Source: Peptococcus simiae (GTDB taxonomy: Bacteria > Bacillota > Peptococcia > Peptococcales > Peptococcaceae). From it: DNA of 32,000 bases. The notes under the pieces are model-generated. The model was given only the letters and a program-made list of their open reading frames with translations, did not search any database and was not told the DNA's origin. The stretch is from the NCBI RefSeq assembly GCF_046097595.1, contig NZ_JBJUVG010000003.1, forward strand, positions 122,054 to 154,053. Direction: 5' to 3'. Position numbers and translations under genes: made by a program. Below are positions 11,045 to 22,754 of this stretch, one piece after another (position 1 is the first letter of the stretch; each line of letters starts with the position of its first letter).

Positions 11045-11063
11045 TAATATCGGCTTTTCACTT

Positions 11064-11152
11064 GGAGAGATGTCCGAGCTTGGCTGAAGGAGCACGACTG
11101 GAAATCGTGTATACGGGAAACCGTATCGAGGGTTCGAATCCCTCTCTCTCCG
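11064..11152 (+). tRNA. tRNA-Ser (anticodon GGA)
   Basis: Folded by hand. Acceptor GGAGAGA/TCTCTCC. Anticodon stem CACGA/TCGTG with loop CTGGAAA. Long class-II variable arm (TATACGGGAAACCGTAT). T-arm GAGGG-TTCGAAT-CCCTC. Discriminator G; no CCA is encoded. Confidence 0.9.
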
Positions 11153-11157
11153 TCTAC

Positions 11158-11194
11158 CCCCGATCCGGGATATTCCGGATCGGGGTCTTTTTTT
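11158..11194 (+). terminator. terminator after tRNA-Ser
   Basis: CCCCGATCCGG...CCGGATCGGGG hairpin followed by TCTTTTTTTT. Confidence 0.85.
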
Positions 11195-11229: not shown

Positions 11230-11258
11230 AAAAAAAGGCCACCGGTTGGACGGTGGCC
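11230..11258 (-). terminator. terminator of the GRE operon (minus strand)
   Basis: On the minus strand: GGCCACCG-TCCAAC-CGGTGGCC followed by T7. Confidence 0.8.
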
Positions 11259-11301
11259 CAGTAAAGGGTTTTAATCTAACGTTTGAGGCGTAGGCCGAAA
11301 G

Positions 11302-12222
11302 CTAGGCATCTGTCACAGGGTCGCAGCCGGCCTGCCGGATGACCGCCTTGAGGGTCTGGATATGGGATGGGTCAGGGGCCTGGTAGAGGGGCTGGTCCTG
11401 GCCCAGGGCCTGGGCCTTGTCCCGTCCCAGGGCGTGGTAGGGGAGGAGGTCAATGGCCGGGTCCTGGGCGTATTGGGCCACAAACTGGGCCAGCCGGCGG
11501 ATATGGTCCGGGTCATCATTGACCCCCTGCAAGAGGGGGATTCGGACGATGACCCTGGGATGCCGGGCGGCCAGCCGCTTAAAGTTGTCCTGGATTAGGC
11601 GGTTGTCCAGGCCGGTCAGCTGGCGGTGCCGGGCCGGGTCCATGTGCTTGAGGTCGAAGAAGACCAGGTCCAGCCGGGCCAGGGTCGGCCAGAGGCGGTC
11701 AAAGTCAAAGTAGCCACAGGTTTCCATGGCCTGGCTGATGGCCAGGTCGTAGAAGCGTTGGCTTAACCGGTCTAAGAAAGCCGCCTGACCGGTGCATTCG
11801 CCACCGGAATAGGTCACGCCCCCGCCGGAAGCGGTGAAAAAGGACTGGTAGGGGAGGACGGCCTGGACCAGGTCGTCGACGGTGTAGGCCGAGATGGTTG
11901 GCCGGCGGGCGCCTGTCGGGCAGGCGGTGGCACAAAGGCCGCAGCCTTGGCACCGGGCCCGGTCCTGGGCCCGGCTGAGGTCTAAGCCTCCGGGATAGGG
12001 GCAGACGGCCCGGCAGGCCTGGCAGGCCTGACACTTATCCGGGTAGAAGAGGATGGCCTTTTTCAGGCTGGCCGTTTCCGGGTTGGCGCACCAGCGGCAG
12101 GCCAGGGGGCAGCCGGCAAAGAAAAAGGTGGTCCGGATGCCATCGCCATCATGGACGGAAAAATGCTGGATATTGGTCAGGTAGCCATAGAGGGGGCCGG
12201 TGGTCGGTTTAGAAGCTGTCAT
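11302..12222 (-). CDS. glycyl-radical enzyme activating enzyme (radical SAM, two auxiliary ferredoxin-like clusters)
   Basis: Radical-SAM motif CPLACRWC, plus CQACQACRAVCP and CQGCGLCATACP. I prefer the ATG at 12222-12220 (MTASKPTTG), which overlaps the GRE 3' end by 14 nt. The track start is 12246. Confidence 0.9.
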   Translation of the reverse strand: MTASKPTTGPLYGYLTNIQHFSVHDGDGIRTTFFFAGCPLACRWCANPETASLKKAILFYPDKCQACQACRAVCPYPGGLDLSRAQDRARCQGCGLCATACPTGARRPTISAYTVDDLVQAVLPYQSFFTASGGGVTYSGGECTGQAAFLDRLSQRFYDLAISQAMETCGYFDFDRLWPTLARLDLVFFDLKHMDPARHRQLTGLDNRLIQDNFKRLAARHPRVIVRIPLLQGVNDDPDHIRRLAQFVAQYAQDPAIDLLPYHALGRDKAQALGQDQPLYQAPDPSHIQTLKAVIRQAGCDPVTDA

Positions 12223-14575
12223 GGCTATTCCGGTCAATGATGGCATCCTGCATAGACCGGGACAGGTTCACAAATTGGGTGGAATAGCCGGCCACGCGGA
12301 CGAGGAGGTCCCGGTAGTTTTCCGGGTTTTTCTGGGCAGCGTAGAGGGTCTCGTTGGAGACGGTATTGAACTGGACATGGAAGCCGCCCAGGTTAAAGAA
12401 ACTCTTGATCATATGGCCCAGGTTGGCCCGACCCCGGGGATTGTTGACCAGGCTGGGGCTCATCCGGAGGTTCATAAGGGTCCCACCGGAATGGACGTCC
12501 TGGTTGAGCTTGGCGGCGCTCCGCATGGCGGCCAGGGGGGTGGACTGGTCGGTCCCTGCATAGGGGGAGACCCCTTCGGAAATCGGGGCCCGGGCATGGC
12601 GACCATCCGGTGTAGCCCCTAGGATTTTCCCGGTGGGTAGGTAGTTGGAAATCCCCATAAAGGCAGACTTAAAGGCATTTCCATTGATGTCCTTATAGCT
12701 GTTGATGGCCTCATACTGGTGGTTGGCGATTTTAACGGCAATCCGGTCTACTTCATCGATGTTGTTGCCATACTTGGGTAGGTTGAGGATCTTTTGCCGG
12801 AGGACTTCATAGCCGGCCCAATCGGCTTCCAGGGCCTGGTGGAGGTCCTCGGCCGAGACGGTCTTTTCATCAAAGACCAGGTGCTTGATGGCATAGAGGG
12901 CATTGGCGCAGACGGCAATCCCCATGGAGGTGATGACCGGGCCCACATTGTATTCCGCCCCACAGTCGACCAGGTCCCGGCCATTTTCCAGGCAGGCGCC
13001 TAAGGTGGCGGACAGGAAGGGACGGGGGGCCTGGTCCCGGTGGAGCTTCTGGGCCAGGAGGGTATTGGATACGGACAGGGCGACCAGCCGGTCAAATTCA
13101 GCAAAGAAGGCCGCTTCCAGGTCAGCATAGCTGGCGTAGTCCGGCAGGCTTTTGTCGGAAATCCCCTTTTTTTCCCCGGTCAGCCGGAGTTTGCCGCCGG
13201 TTAGGGCAAATTCCAGGGCGGCAGGGATATTGAGGTTGACGGCTGAGGTCCATTCACTGACCTTGCGGAAGTGGGGGACCACGCAGCCGCAGTTATTCCA
13301 GTCCCGGGCATCTGTCGGTGAAATGCCATTGTTTAGGAGCATCTTGTAACCGACTTCATCATTGTGGATGGCCGGGAAACCGGTGCCCAGGGCGACCAGG
13401 TCGGTCACCGCATTGACAAAGGCCTGGGGGGCATCCTGGTGGAGCCGGACCGATAGGCCGGGCTGGTGGGTTTGCAATTCGCCGGTGGCCTTGAGGGCCA
13501 GATAGGAGACGGCATTGGTGGCGTCCTGGCCCTGGCGGTCCTTACCGCCGACGGTGAGGTTTTGGAACTGGTTGTAGCCGGCAAAGAAGTCGGCTGTATT
13601 TGAAGAAATGGTCCAGACCCATTCCGACATCTTGAGCCAGAGAGACTCGATGAGTTCCAGGGCCCAGTCTTCCGTGAGTCGGCCGGCGGCGACGTCTTTT
13701 TCATAATAGGGGAAGGTGTACTGGTCAAACCGGCCCGGGTTCAGGGCCAGGGGGTTTTCGGCTAAGATCCCGCCCAGCTGGGTAAACCAGACAAACTGGA
13801 GGGCCTCCCAGAAGGTGGTGGGCGGGTGTTCCGGCACCCGGCGGCAGTTGGCGGCGATGGTCAGGAGCTCTTCTCGGCGGGCGCCGCCGGCGTCTTTGGC
13901 CAGGGTCTCGGCCTGGTCGGCATAGCGGTTGGCCAGGCGGATAATCCCTTCAGCTGTGAGGATAATGGACCGGTAAAAGGTCATCTTGTCCAAGTCCTCG
14001 GCCCGGGTAGCAGAGAGGCTTTCCAGCTTGGCCTTGGCCTCCCGGATAATGCCGCCAAAGCCCTTGACAAAGAGGACCTCCTGGTAGTCCGGGGTGATTT
14101 CCCCGACAGACTGCCGCCACTTGGAGTCGTTGTCGACGATGGAGGTATCGACGGTGACCTTGGCGGCTTCCGGGTCGACCTGGTTTAAAAAGGCTTCCTC
14201 CAGGCTCTTGCCGGCCCAGTAGGGGAAGACGTGCTTGCGTAAGTAGTCTTTTTGCTCCGGCTCAATGGCATAGGGGTCTTGGGGGCGTTCGGCGAAGCGG
14301 TCCATTTCCCGGTCAACCCAGGACCAGGAAAATTCCGGGGTCAGAACGCCGCACTTCCGGTATTCACCCAGGGCGCCGACAATCAGCTCCCCTTCAAAGA
14401 TGTAGACCCCCAATTCTTCGCAGGTATCCTTAAAGGCCATGGCTCGGCGGATGGGGGTGGCCATGCCTTCGGTCCGTTGGTGGGATTCGGTCCAAATCCG
14501 AGCCCGTTCAATGGAAATATGGGGCATGGTGTTGATGTAGTTGTCTTTGGCTTGACGGATGCGATCAGATAGCAT
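12209..14575 (-). CDS. glycyl radical enzyme, PFL2/glycerol-dehydratase-like fold, substrate unknown
   Basis: 788 aa. C-terminal glycyl motif RVAGYS (Gly763, codon at 12287-12289). Cys loop WNNCGCVVPHF (Cys431, codon at 13283-13285). AAAGGAGG RBS. Confidence 0.9.
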   Translation of the reverse strand: MLSDRIRQAKDNYINTMPHISIERARIWTESHQRTEGMATPIRRAMAFKDTCEELGVYIFEGELIVGALGEYRKCGVLTPEFSWSWVDREMDRFAERPQDPYAIEPEQKDYLRKHVFPYWAGKSLEEAFLNQVDPEAAKVTVDTSIVDNDSKWRQSVGEITPDYQEVLFVKGFGGIIREAKAKLESLSATRAEDLDKMTFYRSIILTAEGIIRLANRYADQAETLAKDAGGARREELLTIAANCRRVPEHPPTTFWEALQFVWFTQLGGILAENPLALNPGRFDQYTFPYYEKDVAAGRLTEDWALELIESLWLKMSEWVWTISSNTADFFAGYNQFQNLTVGGKDRQGQDATNAVSYLALKATGELQTHQPGLSVRLHQDAPQAFVNAVTDLVALGTGFPAIHNDEVGYKMLLNNGISPTDARDWNNCGCVVPHFRKVSEWTSAVNLNIPAALEFALTGGKLRLTGEKKGISDKSLPDYASYADLEAAFFAEFDRLVALSVSNTLLAQKLHRDQAPRPFLSATLGACLENGRDLVDCGAEYNVGPVITSMGIAVCANALYAIKHLVFDEKTVSAEDLHQALEADWAGYEVLRQKILNLPKYGNNIDEVDRIAVKIANHQYEAINSYKDINGNAFKSAFMGISNYLPTGKILGATPDGRHARAPISEGVSPYAGTDQSTPLAAMRSAAKLNQDVHSGGTLMNLRMSPSLVNNPRGRANLGHMIKSFFNLGGFHVQFNTVSNETLYAAQKNPENYRDLLVRVAGYSTQFVNLSRSMQDAIIDRNSHDSF

Positions 14576-14593
14576 AGGGACCTCCTTTAGGAC

Positions 14594-15142
14594 TCAGTAA
14601 GACATGATATCTTGAAAAACAAGGGTTTCTTCCGTTTCGTTGATGTATTGGTGGCTGCCCGAGGGGACAAAGCGGAAGCCTGTCGGGGCCTTTAACCGGT
14701 GGGGCTGACCGTGACAGATGAGGGTCAGGGTCCCCTGGGTGACAATGATGTGCTCGTACCTGGCATTGGGATGGGCGGTAGAGGTATAGCCCGTGCCGGG
14801 GGCCATGGTGACGTAGAAATAATCGAAACCGGTTTCCGGTGCAAAGGGAAAGACAGGACAGAGCCGGACCGCCCCATCGGCTTCAGTGAGGACCTCTTCC
14901 TGGCCGATGGCCACCTGGAGGTAGCGGTCACTGTCATCGGCCAGGAGGGAGGCAAAAGATACTTTGAAGCCGCCGGCAATTTTCCATAAGGTGGTGATGC
15001 TCGGGGTCGATTCGCCCCGCTCGATTTGGCCTAGCATGGTTTTGGAGACATTACACAGGTCGCTGGCAGCGGCCAGGCTTAGGCTCCGGTCCTTGCGCAG
15101 GGCCTTGAGCCTGTCACCAAGAAAGGGGAAAGGATCGTTCAT
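14594..15142 (-). CDS. XRE-family HTH transcriptional regulator with C-terminal cupin domain
   Basis: I prefer the ATG at 15142-15140 (MNDPFPFLGDRLKALRKDRSLSL...), with AGGAGG upstream. HTH block: SKTMLGQIERGESTPSITTLWKIA. The C-terminal beta-rich cupin-like part has H...H. The track start at 15265 adds 41 unlikely residues. Confidence 0.8.
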   Translation of the reverse strand: MNDPFPFLGDRLKALRKDRSLSLAAASDLCNVSKTMLGQIERGESTPSITTLWKIAGGFKVSFASLLADDSDRYLQVAIGQEEVLTEADGAVRLCPVFPFAPETGFDYFYVTMAPGTGYTSTAHPNARYEHIIVTQGTLTLICHGQPHRLKAPTGFRFVPSGSHQYINETEETLVFQDIMSY

Positions 15143-15178
15143 AGGGCCTCCTAAATAAAAAAGTTTAACCGCAAAACA

Positions 15179-15198
15179 GCGTACGCTATAACGTACGT
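15179..15198. promoter_or_regulatory. candidate operator: twin 8-bp palindromes GCGTACGC-TATA-ACGTACGT
   Basis: Read directly from the sequence. It lies just downstream of the predicted minus-strand -10 (TAATCT, rc of 15201-15206), whose -35 is TTGACA (rc of 15224-15229). Confidence 0.45.
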
Positions 15199-15200
15199 AT

Positions 15201-15229
15201 AGATTAGCAAAGAAGGGGACCCATGTCAA
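15201..15229 (-). promoter_or_regulatory. candidate promoter of the regulator-GRE-activase operon
   Basis: On the minus strand: TTGACA, 17-nt spacer, TAATCT. Confidence 0.5.
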
Positions 15230-15265
15230 TAAATTCAGACAATTAACTGACCCTCTAGCGGCCAA

Positions 15266-15294
15266 TTGACCTGGTATTTTTCTTCCTTTACACT
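15266..15294 (+). promoter_or_regulatory. candidate promoter of the permease gene
   Basis: TTGACC (15266-15271), 17-nt spacer, TACACT (15289-15294). Confidence 0.5.
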
Positions 15295-15342
15295 GAAACG
15301 GTACTTATTTTTATTGCTGTGAATGATGAAGGAGGTATTTGC

Positions 15343-16797
15343 TTGACGAATCAAAAGAAAAACTGGGCCTATTTGGTCAATAGCCTGGTCACCCTGGGGA
15401 TTATGTTTGGCTTTTCCCTACTGCCGGCGCCGGGGACCATCACGCCCCTGGGGATGCAAATTTTAGGCATTTTTATTGCCCTCATCTACGGCTGGTCAAC
15501 GGTCGGGACCATTTGGCCCAGCCTGGCCGGGATCTTGGCCATGGGCTTTACCGACTACGCCACCGTTTCTGAGGCTATTATGCAGGCCATGGGTAATGAT
15601 GTGGTCTGGCAGCTCCTGCTTATTATGGCCATGCTGGTGCCTATTGAAAATGAAGGGGTGGCCAACCATATTTCCAAGTTCTTTTTAAGCCTGCCCATCG
15701 TCAAGGGCCGGCCCTGGGCTTTTAGTGCGATTTTCTTATTTGCCACCTATGTGCTTTCGGCCTCTACCAGCGGGACGGCGACCATCCTGCTCATGTGGGC
15801 CATCTTATACAGCATCCTCCGGTCGGTGGGCTATACCATTGCCGACCGCTACACCTCTTTGATGATCTTTGGGGTGGTCTATGCCAGTATTTTAGGCTTT
15901 GCCACCTTCCCCTTTAAAGGGCCGGCCCTGGCCATATTACGGTCTTATGCGGCCGCTTCCGGCCAGGTCATGGATAATGCCCTCTATATGGCGGTCGTTA
16001 TACCGACCACGCTCGTCATGCTGGCCGGTTACCTCCTGGCCATGCGGGTCATCTTCAGGCCGGATACCGAGAAGCTTAAAAATATTGACTTACAGGCCTA
16101 CTTTGATGCCCTGGACCTCCACCAAATGAACCGCCGGCAGAGGGTCCTCCTGGGGGTCTTGTGCATGAGTATTTTACTGATGTTCCTGCCCAGTATCATG
16201 CCCAAGACCTGGGCATTAACCGCTTTCCTACAGGCCCTTGGCTCGTCCGGGGTTATGGTCCTCATTGTAACGGTGATGATTGCCGTCCGGGTTGAGGGCA
16301 AGCCCCTTTTGAACTTTAAGCAGGCAGCTGCCCAGATTCAGTGGGGGATTGTCTTCCTGGTTATGGCCGCCCTCTTTGTGGCCGGCGCCCTTTGCAGCGA
16401 AGGGACCGGGGTGACGGACTACTTCCATGACGTCCTCTACCCGGTTTTAGGCGGCCGGTCTCTGGCAGTCTTTAGCCTCCTGGGTGTCTTGAGCGGGACC
16501 GTCATTACCAACTTTGGTAATAATGCAGCCATGGGGGTGGTCCTCATGCCCCTGATTCATGCCCTGTCTGCCGGTGGCGACTTTAACCCCCTCGTCCCGG
16601 TGACCCTGGTCACCATGAGCGTTTTTGTCGCGGTCATCACCCCGGTGGCCTCGCCCCATGCGGCCCTCCTGCATGGGAACAGGGAGTGGATTAGCGGCCG
16701 CCATGTCTACCTTTATGCCGTTTCCATGACCCTGTGGAGTGTTTTTGTCACCATGCTGGTGGGCCTACCCCTGGCCCGGTTGGTTTTCGGCAGTTAA
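15343..16797 (+). CDS. multi-pass anion permease, ion-transporter superfamily (SLC13/DASS- or ArsB/NhaD-like)
   Basis: About 484 aa and very hydrophobic (12 or more predicted TM segments), with a central hydrophilic loop. Small-residue hairpin-like motifs: SASTSGTATI, TNFGNNAAMG, TPVASPHAA. I prefer TTG 15343, 7 nt after GAAGGAGG; the track start is 15319. Confidence 0.6.
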   Translation: MTNQKKNWAYLVNSLVTLGIMFGFSLLPAPGTITPLGMQILGIFIALIYGWSTVGTIWPSLAGILAMGFTDYATVSEAIMQAMGNDVVWQLLLIMAMLVPIENEGVANHISKFFLSLPIVKGRPWAFSAIFLFATYVLSASTSGTATILLMWAILYSILRSVGYTIADRYTSLMIFGVVYASILGFATFPFKGPALAILRSYAAASGQVMDNALYMAVVIPTTLVMLAGYLLAMRVIFRPDTEKLKNIDLQAYFDALDLHQMNRRQRVLLGVLCMSILLMFLPSIMPKTWALTAFLQALGSSGVMVLIVTVMIAVRVEGKPLLNFKQAAAQIQWGIVFLVMAALFVAGALCSEGTGVTDYFHDVLYPVLGGRSLAVFSLLGVLSGTVITNFGNNAAMGVVLMPLIHALSAGGDFNPLVPVTLVTMSVFVAVITPVASPHAALLHGNREWISGRHVYLYAVSMTLWSVFVTMLVGLPLARLVFGS

Positions 16798-16888: not shown

Positions 16889-17158
16889 GTAGCCGCACAC
16901 CGACCATTGAAAAACGCTCCCAAGCGGCAAACCACCAGCCGGCTCGAGCCAGGCACCCCGGCGGCACATATGTGGACCTGCTTATTGCTGCTTCCTTCCG
17001 GACCTGACAAGGTTCACAGGGACATATTGCGTCGGACCCGACTGTCATCACTACTTAATGATCGCCAGACCTTAAAATTACTTCCCGCGGGTCGGCCTCA
17101 GTCCTGCTATAGCGGATTGCAGGTAACAGGGCACCGCTAGCGCCCCACCTAGTGCGGT
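16889..17158 (-). ncRNA. ffs: signal recognition particle RNA, long (Bacillus-type, Alu-domain-containing) form
   Basis: The minus strand contains the near-invariant helix-8 motif GTCAGGTCCGGAAGGAAGCAGC (rc of about 16972-17008). The 5' CCGCAC pairs with the 3' GTGCGG. Length is about 270 nt, and the gene has its own promoter and terminator. End coordinates are approximate. Confidence 0.85.
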
Positions 17159-18274: not shown

Positions 18275-18907
18275 ATGACGCAACCGATGATGGAGGGGTT
18301 TAAGGCGCTACGCCAAGGCGACCGCCTATCCGTAGAGAGTCTGTTTGCATCAGAGCGTACATTTTGGCTGACGGCATCTATCGCAACTGGCTTCGCCTTA
18401 GCAGAACTGCAAGAGGGGCCCGCTCGCTTAATAACCCAGCAAAATGACGATGATATGCTTGAAAAATTCAACGCCTGCCTCCGGACAGGCCATATTGATG
18501 AGACGGTCTTTGTTGAAAGCAAGGCCCGGACCCTGGACAATATGCAGGCCATTGCCCGCATCCTGCAACAGGGCACTGTCTTTAATACAGACCGGGCGGT
18601 TCAAGTCTGTACGGCCTTTGTGAGCTACTGGCTCTTCAGCAAGCTCATTGAAATGGAGTGGGAAAGACTCCTGGCTGCAGATGCCCGGCGGGAAAGCTAT
18701 ATTTTCATGGATGGCATTATTGCCGACCAGGATGAACTGGCGATTATCCGTGAAAAGGTCCACCAGGACCAGCCCCTGTATGATGATGAAATTGTTTACT
18801 TGCGGAGCCACTGGCAGGTGGGCCGGGAATTCTTCCGTCGCCTGCAAAATAAGCTGGTGCTCCTAGACCGGGGCCTCATTCCCTTTGTATCCGGCCCCCG
18901 GGCATAA
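18275..18907 (+). CDS. hypothetical protein (210 aa, soluble, mostly helical by composition)
   Basis: ORF with an AGGTGG RBS 6 nt upstream. It ends at a shared terminator. I recognise no motif. Confidence 0.6.
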   Translation: MTQPMMEGFKALRQGDRLSVESLFASERTFWLTASIATGFALAELQEGPARLITQQNDDDMLEKFNACLRTGHIDETVFVESKARTLDNMQAIARILQQGTVFNTDRAVQVCTAFVSYWLFSKLIEMEWERLLAADARRESYIFMDGIIADQDELAIIREKVHQDQPLYDDEIVYLRSHWQVGREFFRRLQNKLVLLDRGLIPFVSGPRA

Positions 18908-22025: not shown

Positions 22026-22754
22026 ATGATGAAAAGAAAGGGAATCTTATGCTGTGTTGTTATCGTTGTTGCAGCTTTCTTAGCAACGCCCGCTTTTGCT
22101 GGAACAGATAGTCACCCTCTAGAAAAAACATATTCTGCTGAAGAAATTCTTGACCGAAATGATTATTTGTGTAATGTAGATCAGGCAGAGATGAATAGCA
22201 CAAATGCTTATTTAATTAATCCAAAAACTAATGAAAAAGTGATTCTTAGAACGTATACGTCGCCACAACTTAAAATGCTACAAACACCTTATGATAAGCT
22301 ATCGAAGGTGAGTGAAGATATTTACTTTCGGGATGTAGCTGTTGACCTTACTGCAGAAGATTTGAGACGAGCAGGTCTATCTGAAGAGACGGGTGAAATA
22401 TGGGATAATGGGGGGCGTGTAAAATCTTGGGGAAGGTTTTATTATAAACAAAATTATAACTATGTTTTAATGACGAAGATTACAGGTAATTGGCGTAATG
22501 ATTATCCAAATGCTATCACTTTAAGTAACCATGTTGCTCAGGCAAAATGCGCAAGTAGTAATACATCTTTTCAAACACGAAAATGGTGGCCGAATGGTGG
22601 CTATACTTATAGTACAGGGTTTTCAGAATATGCGTTAATAGGGACTTCTTACACTACAATTGCTCTTCGACAACAAGTTAATGTAACCTATCGAAACACT
22701 GGGGAAACAACTATACTTACTTTAGTTCTTGCTCCGTGGGGCGAGGCTTGGTAG
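22026..22754 (+). CDS. hypothetical secreted protein (Sec signal peptide, Tyr/Trp/Asn/Thr-rich mature part)
   Basis: 242 aa. GGGAGG RBS. The signal peptide MMKRKGILCCVVIVVAAFLATPAFA is followed by GTD. I recognise no family. Confidence 0.65.
   Translation: MMKRKGILCCVVIVVAAFLATPAFAGTDSHPLEKTYSAEEILDRNDYLCNVDQAEMNSTNAYLINPKTNEKVILRTYTSPQLKMLQTPYDKLSKVSEDIYFRDVAVDLTAEDLRRAGLSEETGEIWDNGGRVKSWGRFYYKQNYNYVLMTKITGNWRNDYPNAITLSNHVAQAKCASSNTSFQTRKWWPNGGYTYSTGFSEYALIGTSYTTIALRQQVNVTYRNTGETTILTLVLAPWGEAW

Follow-up and report, generated by a model that had tools for sequence, protein, structure and literature searches.

A CutC-related glycyl radical enzyme with a non-canonical catalytic centre in a probable ligand-inducible cassette of Peptococcus

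Glycyl radical enzymes (GREs) run chemically hard anaerobic reactions, among them the production of trimethylamine (TMA), H2S, p-cresol and skatole and the activation of hydrocarbons. Choline TMA-lyase CutC, with its activase CutD, combines the GRE barrel fold with an RVAGY loop, a catalytic Cys in a G-C-V-x-P loop and an adjacent three-cluster activase. Glycerol and propanediol dehydratases, HypD, HpyG/HpzG, HplG and PflD/YbiW are single-subunit enzymes with an activase that use the PFL2-type scaffold. The Cys loop of PFL and TdcE carries a pair of cysteines and has no Glu at the second position after the radical Cys, and PhdB (considered here by description only) and other GRE decarboxylases are encoded in minimal enzyme-plus-activase loci, with PhdB lacking the Glu of the CXE motif. 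A review of June 2026 states that every characterised isomerase and every characterised eliminase, whether of C-O, C-N or C-S bonds, has kept CXE, and that the corresponding Glu491 is essential in CutC. Here we explore a locus in a 32,000-nucleotide (nt) stretch of Peptococcus simiae DNA (contig NZ_JBJUVG010000003.1, positions 122,054 to 154,053; hereafter the window), where an open reading frame (ORF) listing and profile searches place an XRE-cupin regulator, a GRE of 788 amino acids (aa) and a radical-SAM activase in one minus-strand operon. The explanation that we favour overall, with moderate confidence, is a self-contained ligand-inducible cassette serving a GRE with a non-canonical catalytic centre.

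The GRE gene (12209-14575, minus strand) encodes a PFL-like barrel and a glycine-radical domain (Pfam PF02901, 677 bits; PF01228, 112 bits). No characterised or solved GRE is more than 37% identical to the protein, CutC coming nearest, and since the protein also fails every functional cut-off of NCBIfam it falls inside no characterised isofunctional cluster, at high identity or otherwise, which upholds the orphan status proposed in a previous sequence-only reading of this DNA. The top NCBIfam model is the CutC equivalog TIGR04394 (679.2 bits, cut-off 1050), and the PFL2-3 subfamily model is just missed (653, cut-off 678). Scores lie far under each cut-off for the HpsG, HypD, HpfG, IAD, HPAD and PFL models, as exemplified by HPAD NF033715 (318, cut-off 1150), IAD NF033718 (398, cut-off 1100) and TIGR01255 for PFL (126, cut-off 994); AAD gave 326 bits. 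A search of all PDB chains returned CutC as best match (587-651 bits), followed by HpyG, glycerol dehydratase, propanediol dehydratase and HpzG. HPAD scored 206 bits in the same search, BSS 266 bits at 26% identity, and MASS was 25% identical (PDB search and Foldseek). No accessory beta/gamma ORFs of the X-succinate synthase type were found at the locus, and the ORF listing, searched for an HPAD-type small subunit, holds no small ORF between or after the GRE-locus genes. An AlphaFold2 model built from a 19-sequence family alignment (mean predicted local distance difference test (pLDDT) 72, predicted template modelling score (pTM) 0.80) was used for fold assignment only; Foldseek matched it to CutC with a template modelling score of 0.84 at 35-37% identity and to all other solved GREs at 25-36% identity. 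HMMER screening of 1.84 billion representatives of 50%-identity clusters recovered its own cluster and fragments, the next matches being already at 38% identity or less. A rough neighbour-joining analysis of 150 sequences groups the family as a tight clade, sister to CutC and one uncharacterised cluster (P0124). Literature searches found no paper on this GRE family.

More than 100 clusters at 90% identity share 59-72% identity with the window GRE. Members were identified in Clostridium carboxidivorans, C. scatologenes, C. drakei and C. magnum, in Desulfosporosinus, Desulforamulus, Sedimentibacter, Tissierella, Geosporobacter and Fusibacter, and in human-gut, digester and sediment metagenomes; a scan of genome contigs with the single GRE protein matched only P. 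simiae plus distant GREs. Across these taxa, at this level of identity, about 300 positions are invariant in addition to the Gly and Cys loops. Some pipelines name family members choline trimethylamine-lyase, a label that is almost certainly wrong. Within the species one strain, P. simiae M919-2/1 (L001:10001-11674), carries an in-frame deletion of residues ~278-506 that leaves a 557-aa ORF from which the Cys loop is gone; the deletion allele also occurs in the representative library (P0121), and the full 788-aa GRE is present in other P. simiae assemblies (P0293). The gene is hence polymorphic and dispensable within P. simiae.

To compare catalytic centres, residues were mapped onto the numbering of Desulfovibrio alaskensis CutC by way of a CutC representative, with 131 other GRE representatives as contrast set. 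RVAGY, with radical glycine Gly763 (codon 12287-12289, minus strand), and GCVVP are each found in 119 of 120 homologues; in the family alignment the former is invariant, as is the extended Cys loop NCGCVVPH, which homologues, alignment and position mapping place at N428-C429-G430-C431-V432-V433-P434-H435 (13271-13294, minus strand). Catalytic Cys431 aligns to CutC Cys489. The base of the CXE motif, CutC Glu491, is replaced by Val433, at a position where Glu is found in 101 of the 131 other representatives. CutC Asp216, which is His in eliminases, maps to Glu159 (codon 14099-14101, minus strand); the contrast set has His in 96 of 131 cases and Glu in 2%. First-shell Met487 of CutC corresponds to Cys429, a second cysteine two residues before Cys431. 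Both tyrosines of the trimethylammonium pocket are lost (Tyr208 to Ser151, Tyr506 to Asn447), His209, Thr334 and Leu698 are replaced by Lys, Leu and Met, and the equivalents of Phe389, Phe395 and Thr502 are kept, with Phe331/Phe337 as the aromatic pair. The pocket thus retains this pair and an acidic residue at the place that accommodates the trimethylammonium group in CutC. In all, 42 positions are invariant in the family and rare elsewhere, and at least 13 of these lie on or beside the CutC first shell (209K, 210W, 212Q, 216E, 333P, 334L, 394Q, 486N, 487C, 491V, 493H, 506N and 698M in CutC numbering). Lys152, Gln155, Asn428, His435, Asn447 and Asn644 are new small polar residues of the pocket.

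In every characterised eliminase and isomerase the CXE Glu takes the proton from the substrate hydroxyl; with Val433 in its place, the family cannot follow the standard ketyl mechanism via that residue, and Cys429, at the position of CutC Met487, should by homology point into the pocket next to Cys431. The dehydratases and the other C-O eliminases and isomerases named above, 29-36% identical to the window GRE, have CXE without exception and mostly a His where Glu159 stands here; the family has neither. Judged from these sequence comparisons, the GRE is shown not to be an isofunctional eliminase but to belong to a discrete, widespread and functionally uncharacterised clade sister to choline TMA-lyase. 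The non-canonical Cys loop, with Glu changed to Val and a second Cys, is the most interesting feature of the locus and was absent from the sequence-only reading. It is accompanied by changes elsewhere: where PFL2-type GREs almost always show G-P-T (CutC 737-739, with Gly in 128 of 131 representatives), the family reads T-P-L, and residues after the radical glycine are altered (F825 to Q and E828 to N, CutC numbering). The P0124 protein (810 aa), which groups with CutC, has Glu at the CutC Asp216 position and keeps the CXE Glu; its cluster might represent an intermediate stage in evolution, or its substrate might be another ammonium compound.

The activase gene (11302-12246, minus strand; 314 aa, alternative start ATG 12222) was identified by Pfam and by TIGR02494 (292.7 bits, cut-off 174). 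Its product has the CX3CX2C motif at residue 46 (CPLACRWC) and two ferredoxin-like CX2CX2CX3C motifs, and it translationally overlaps the GRE by 14 nt if started at ATG 12222 or by 38 nt if started at 12246. Conservation of the neighbourhood was studied in 85 orthologous loci with flanks of up to 10 kb on each side, gathered from encoding contigs and by a metagenome scan with the family alignment; dereplication at 88% GRE identity reduced them to 42 groups. The activase is found at +1 in 69 of 81 loci, and in 23 of the 42 groups the XRE-cupin regulator occupies either position -1, in the same orientation, or position +2. These two are the only recurring neighbours, anything else being confined to one or few lineages, and no recognisable GRE pathway, shell gene or aldehyde-dehydrogenase gene recurs beside the GRE in any of these groups. 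The orthologues thus sit in minimal loci rather than in fragments of a known complete pathway, and the orphan character of the locus is a property of the family. In ten further loci, where the larger genes upstream and downstream were annotated in search of recurrent transporters, only unrelated genes were found (PLD, L,D-transpeptidase, HlyD, FGGY kinase, helicases, a sigma-54 activator, FIST, SLH and one ORF without a match).

Lineage-specific neighbours give weak but coherent hints toward amino-acid or pyruvate-level metabolism. In a Tissierellia lineage an AGCS Na+/alanine-type amino-acid carrier is encoded 18 nt upstream of the GRE, behind an operator, and this is the sole transporter clearly co-operonic with a GRE orthologue. 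A diaminopropionate ammonia-lyase gene follows the activase by 12 nt in one gut lineage. Adjacent genes in other lineages encode alanine racemase, acetate kinase, threonine-aldolase-like, SDH_alpha-like and M20 or pyroglutamyl peptidase proteins; Fe-ADH is encoded near the GRE in two such neighbourhoods, and another homologue occupies +4 in L068. The threonine-aldolase-like gene of Clostridium was rejected as a member of the same regulon, its XRE-cupin protein being only 31% identical and its palindrome different. That regulator gene (L121:12831-13675) is divergent to the threonine-aldolase-like gene and has its own palindrome, TTCGATATA...TATATCGAA, so that XRE-cupin/operator pairs appear to be a recurrent means of controlling small catabolic units in Clostridium. 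One metagenomic contig (L079:~5000-13500) holds two GRE-activase pairs arranged divergently around a single XRE-cupin gene.

The regulator gene (14594-15142, minus strand) lies 18 nt from the GRE gene, whose start is preceded by an AGGAGG site. Its ORF extends to 15265, and the true start is almost certainly ATG 15142, which yields a protein of 182 aa, in line with most homologues (182-192 aa). Pfam recognises HTH_3 (47.5 bits) and Cupin_2 (37.6 bits), both over their cut-offs, and the match to PDB 1y9q has an E-value of 7e-28. In domain order, with an N-terminal HTH_3 and a C-terminal Cupin_2, and in a palindromic operator that suggests autoregulation, the protein resembles XRE-cupin regulators such as PuuR and 1y9q, but it scores below all NCBIfam cut-offs (PuuR, 39.6 against 211) and its operator is specific to loci of this GRE family. 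The operator was recognised as a palindrome, YRYTATARYR, common to the regions upstream of the regulator genes, for instance ATATGTTATAACGTAT. Across 81 loci its overall density is 0.11 per kb; 21 matches fall in the 300 bp 5' of the regulator and 29 in the 300 bp 5' of the GRE, where about 2.7 would be expected each, which amounts to an enrichment of about 8-10 fold. The motif scan finds a single copy in the window, CGTACGCTATAACGTACG at 15180-15197 (0.04 expected), directly downstream of the -10 element of a putative minus-strand operon promoter read from the sequence (15201-15229; -35 TTGACA at 15224-15229, 17-nt spacer, -10 TAATCT at 15201-15206). The -10 is weak and a consensus scan did not call this promoter; the layout of TTGACA, 17 nt, -10 and operator recurs in several homologous loci. 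An operator just 3' of the -10 of the regulator's own promoter is the architecture of an autoregulated repressor, and we infer that a cupin ligand relieves the repression. Since the regulator and its operator are both conserved alongside the GRE, the proposal of an inducible cassette is well founded.

A scheme consistent with these data would run as follows. The XRE-cupin protein is predicted to bind the YRYTATARYR sites found at its own promoter and would repress the regulator-GRE-activase operon until a small molecule occupies the cupin domain. The radical machinery is intact as far as its motifs show, and these suggest that the activase puts the radical on Gly763 and that Cys431 relays it to the substrate, the ammonium group of which might be bound by Glu159 together with the conserved aromatic pair Phe331/Phe337. 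Once hydrogen had been abstracted or the thiyl had added, no hydroxyl-derived ketyl would be involved; the reaction would be either a beta-elimination or 1,2-shift assisted by the amine, or a C-C cleavage that uses two cysteines as in PFL, and it might yield a central metabolite of the pyruvate, acetaldehyde or acetyl level. Such a product would explain the absence of dedicated downstream genes and usually of a transporter. A small cationic or zwitterionic nitrogen substrate, such as an amino acid or amino-carbonyl, converted by ketyl-free chemistry to a central metabolite is our best guess at the chemistry, though we rate it less likely than not; next to the cationic nitrogen the substrate probably bears a second polar or anionic group.

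The GRE probably performs a reaction not yet described. More specifically, and as a tentative proposal, the family may be a new functional GRE class in which a CutC-like scaffold has its Glu/His pair replaced by Val and Glu and gains an extra active-site Cys (C-G-C) for an unprecedented reaction, the candidates under that same tentative heading being a C-C cleavage in which two cysteines act on an amino-carbonyl in the manner of PFL, an elimination or 1,2-shift driven by the amine, and radical epimerisation of a small amino acid. A two-cysteine mechanism is conceivable since the loop, as in PFL, has two cysteines and no Glu. It differs from PFL and TdcE in that the cysteines form C-G-C instead of adjacent C-C, and only the glycine-loop domain aligns significantly to PFL, as reflected in the TIGR01255 score given above. 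Going by published structural comparisons of PFL and glycerol dehydratase, the equivalents of the pyruvate-binding Arg176 and Arg435 of PFL appear to be Glu159 and Thr443. No CoA site is known in the family.

The sequence-only reading had leaned on an anion permease as partner of the GRE. This SLC13/CitMHS-type (IT superfamily) protein is encoded divergently from the GRE operon (15343-16797, plus strand, 484 aa) across a control region of 200 bp (15143-15342). It matches the CitMHS (75.9 bits, cut-off 31.9) and Na_sulph_symp (40.6, cut-off 27) profiles of Pfam and does not reach the stricter TIGR00785 (60.8, cut-off 198.6); its ORF spans 15319-16797, and the start is probably TTG 15343, after the ribosome-binding site GAAGGAGG, which gives 484 aa as in P. 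simiae. If this permease imported a carboxylate or sulfonate that also acted as inducer through the cupin regulator, the GRE could perform a single radical step on an anion, and in favour of such anion catabolism are the anion-transporter families matched, the divergent permease-regulator layout kept between the window and P. simiae, and the family-invariant Lys152, Arg154 and His435, which could bind an anionic group. The permease is, however, found beside the GRE only in Peptococcus, namely in the window and in strain M919-2/1, and is missing from the other 40 of the 42 groups, so that the pairing is not conserved. Its closest homologues elsewhere (65-71% identical) reside in unrelated Crp-regulated modules, beside a Crp-type regulator and an OYE flavoenzyme or aryl-sulfate sulfotransferase. 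The permease promoter-like site detected by sequence scan (TTGACC, 17 nt, TACACT; 15266-15294, plus strand) is about 70 bp from the lone operator of the window, does not overlap it and carries no operator itself; a motif shared by the regions upstream of the permease and its homologues was looked for and none was found. The AGCS carrier that is co-operonic with an orthologue and the acidic Glu at the leaving-group pocket argue against a simple anionic substrate, and with a permease specific to Peptococcus the reading of an anionic substrate is not supported. The sulfonate-binding position, Gln in IslA-type enzymes, is this same Glu159, and direct desulfonation of taurine or another sulfonate was rated unlikely for that reason. 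We regard anion catabolism as improbable overall. The permease looks like a lineage-specific neighbour, a separate module that abuts the cassette in Peptococcus and whose link to the GRE is unproven. As to the homologues themselves, some lie directly upstream of aryl-sulfate sulfotransferase genes (P0344-P0346; L118:4005-6943; L119:7001-8776), and some Peptococcaceae encode a 591-aa sulfotransferase whose initial ~100 residues share 76% identity with a portion of the permease, which suggests a fusion or a permease-gene remnant.

Three further explanations were considered. The enzyme could be a terminal aryl- or alkyl-acetate decarboxylase like PhdB, IAD or AAD, acting as a stand-alone detoxifying or end-product step with a volatile product for which no downstream genes would be required. 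Minimal enzyme-plus-activase loci are typical of these enzymes, and the CXE Glu is likewise absent from phenylacetate decarboxylase (PAD), where Cys482 and Gln484 are among the essential residues. The contexts of the permease homologues, where aryl-sulfate sulfotransferase, OYE/enoate-reductase-type flavoenzymes, 2-oxoacid:ferredoxin oxidoreductase (POR-family domains) and AMP-binding acid-CoA ligase are encoded, are compatible with aromatic-acid metabolism though not specific for it, and nearby M20 amidohydrolases could free acids from conjugates. Against this the family is sister to CutC, with low similarity to HPAD, IAD and AAD (PhdB being outside the comparison); its pocket, with invariant Glu159 and many small polar residues, is polar and acidic rather than an aromatic-binding cavity, and a small subunit is absent. 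We therefore hold a decarboxylase to be less probable again than anion catabolism. Lower still we place a divergent enzyme isofunctional with CutC or another 1,2-eliminase, which would act on choline or a close analogue, on ethanolamine or on a diol with Glu159, Glu441 or His435 as base. CutC is the nearest relative, the equivalents of Phe389, Phe395 and Thr502 and an acidic residue at 216 are shared with it, and Fe-ADH near the GRE in some lineages would fit an aldehyde product; yet the Glu lost here is catalytically essential in CutC, Tyr208 and Tyr506 are gone, the score is far under the CutC equivalog cut-off and the microcompartment/aldehyde-dehydrogenase context recurs in none of the groups. 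The family also differs from CutC in lacking the N-terminal extension and the microcompartment and aldehyde/alcohol dehydrogenase genes, and in its control by an XRE-cupin repressor. That the gene is decaying or non-catalytic after loss of an eliminase function is very improbable: the deletion in one P. simiae strain would fit, but full-length alleles exist in other assemblies of the species, the activase is co-conserved, and the loops and some 300 other positions have stayed invariant despite the sequence divergence within the family.

Several observations also weigh against the reading that we prefer, an inducible cassette with a GRE of non-canonical catalytic centre. The Cys-loop deletion in strain M919-2/1 shows that the GRE gene is dispensable, and about 45% of the dereplicated groups have no adjacent XRE-cupin regulator. 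Each of the context hints is confined to one or few lineages and could reflect chance adjacency, and the divergent anion permease, being conserved in Peptococcus, could point to an anionic substrate in that lineage. The chemical part of the proposal derives from residue mapping by homology, and so would the orientation of Cys429 and Glu159, for which the model is of low confidence exactly where it matters: pLDDT is below 50 at 150-158, 321-337, 429-443, 640-703 and 759-788, that is, in the active-site loops and the glycine domain. Loss of the Glu is not unique in sequence space either, since phenylacetate decarboxylase has CXQ and other uncharacterised GRE clusters also lack the CXE Glu. The family thus represents one among several unexplored ways of doing without the Glu, not a unique one.

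The remaining anatomy of the locus agrees with the sequence-only reading, of which the gene content, coordinates and spacing were reproduced by the ORF listing and profile searches. So was the location between two stable RNA genes: ARAGORN and Rfam RF00005 place a tRNA-Ser gene with anticodon GGA at the left boundary (11063-11154, plus strand), and Rfam RF01854 (189.8 bits) places the large bacterial signal recognition particle (SRP) RNA at the right boundary (16893-17157, minus strand). A terminator-like hairpin with T-run detected by sequence scan just 3' of the activase stop (11236-11259, minus strand) is the probable operon end. A second such hairpin (11158-11185, plus strand) is convergent and back to back with it, and between the tRNA-Ser and activase genes the two keep the transcription units cleanly apart. 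The GC content is 0.60 over the GRE and 0.44-0.55 in the flanks, for which a horizontal insertion at the tRNA-Ser gene was considered. P. simiae assemblies are syntenic with the window, with protein identities of 87-96%.

Elsewhere in the window the annotated ORFs are of a housekeeping nature and include the his operon, rplI, veg, rubrerythrin, a PanE-like reductase, a sigma factor with anti-sigma kinase, dCMP deaminase, UDP-GlcNAc 2-epimerase and ATP synthase. The survey covered the scanned ORFs of the window, a few others having no Pfam match or lying outside the scan; among the scanned ORFs no microcompartment shell, aldehyde/alcohol dehydrogenase, small GRE subunit or sulfite-handling gene was found, just as had been claimed. 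Two ORFs, at 18275-18907 (plus strand, 210 aa) and 22026-22754 (plus strand, 242 aa), lack a Pfam or NCBIfam match, and the former is kept in P. simiae beside the PanE-like reductase gene.

The orphan GRE with its own regulator is thus confirmed to be real, and the sequence-only reading was wrong to lean on the anion permease. The family is widespread in Clostridia, including those represented in human-gut and digester metagenomes, and stands closest of all to CutC while being devoid of the residue by which eliminase and isomerase catalysis is defined. With some of its members labelled choline TMA-lyase, the potential for TMA production would be overestimated. If a function were assigned to the family, the GREs would probably gain a new type of reaction, and the ways in which their scaffold can be re-tooled would be put to the test. 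The dedicated repressor and its defined operator make this question tractable without a prior guess at the substrate, since the inducer could be found through them.

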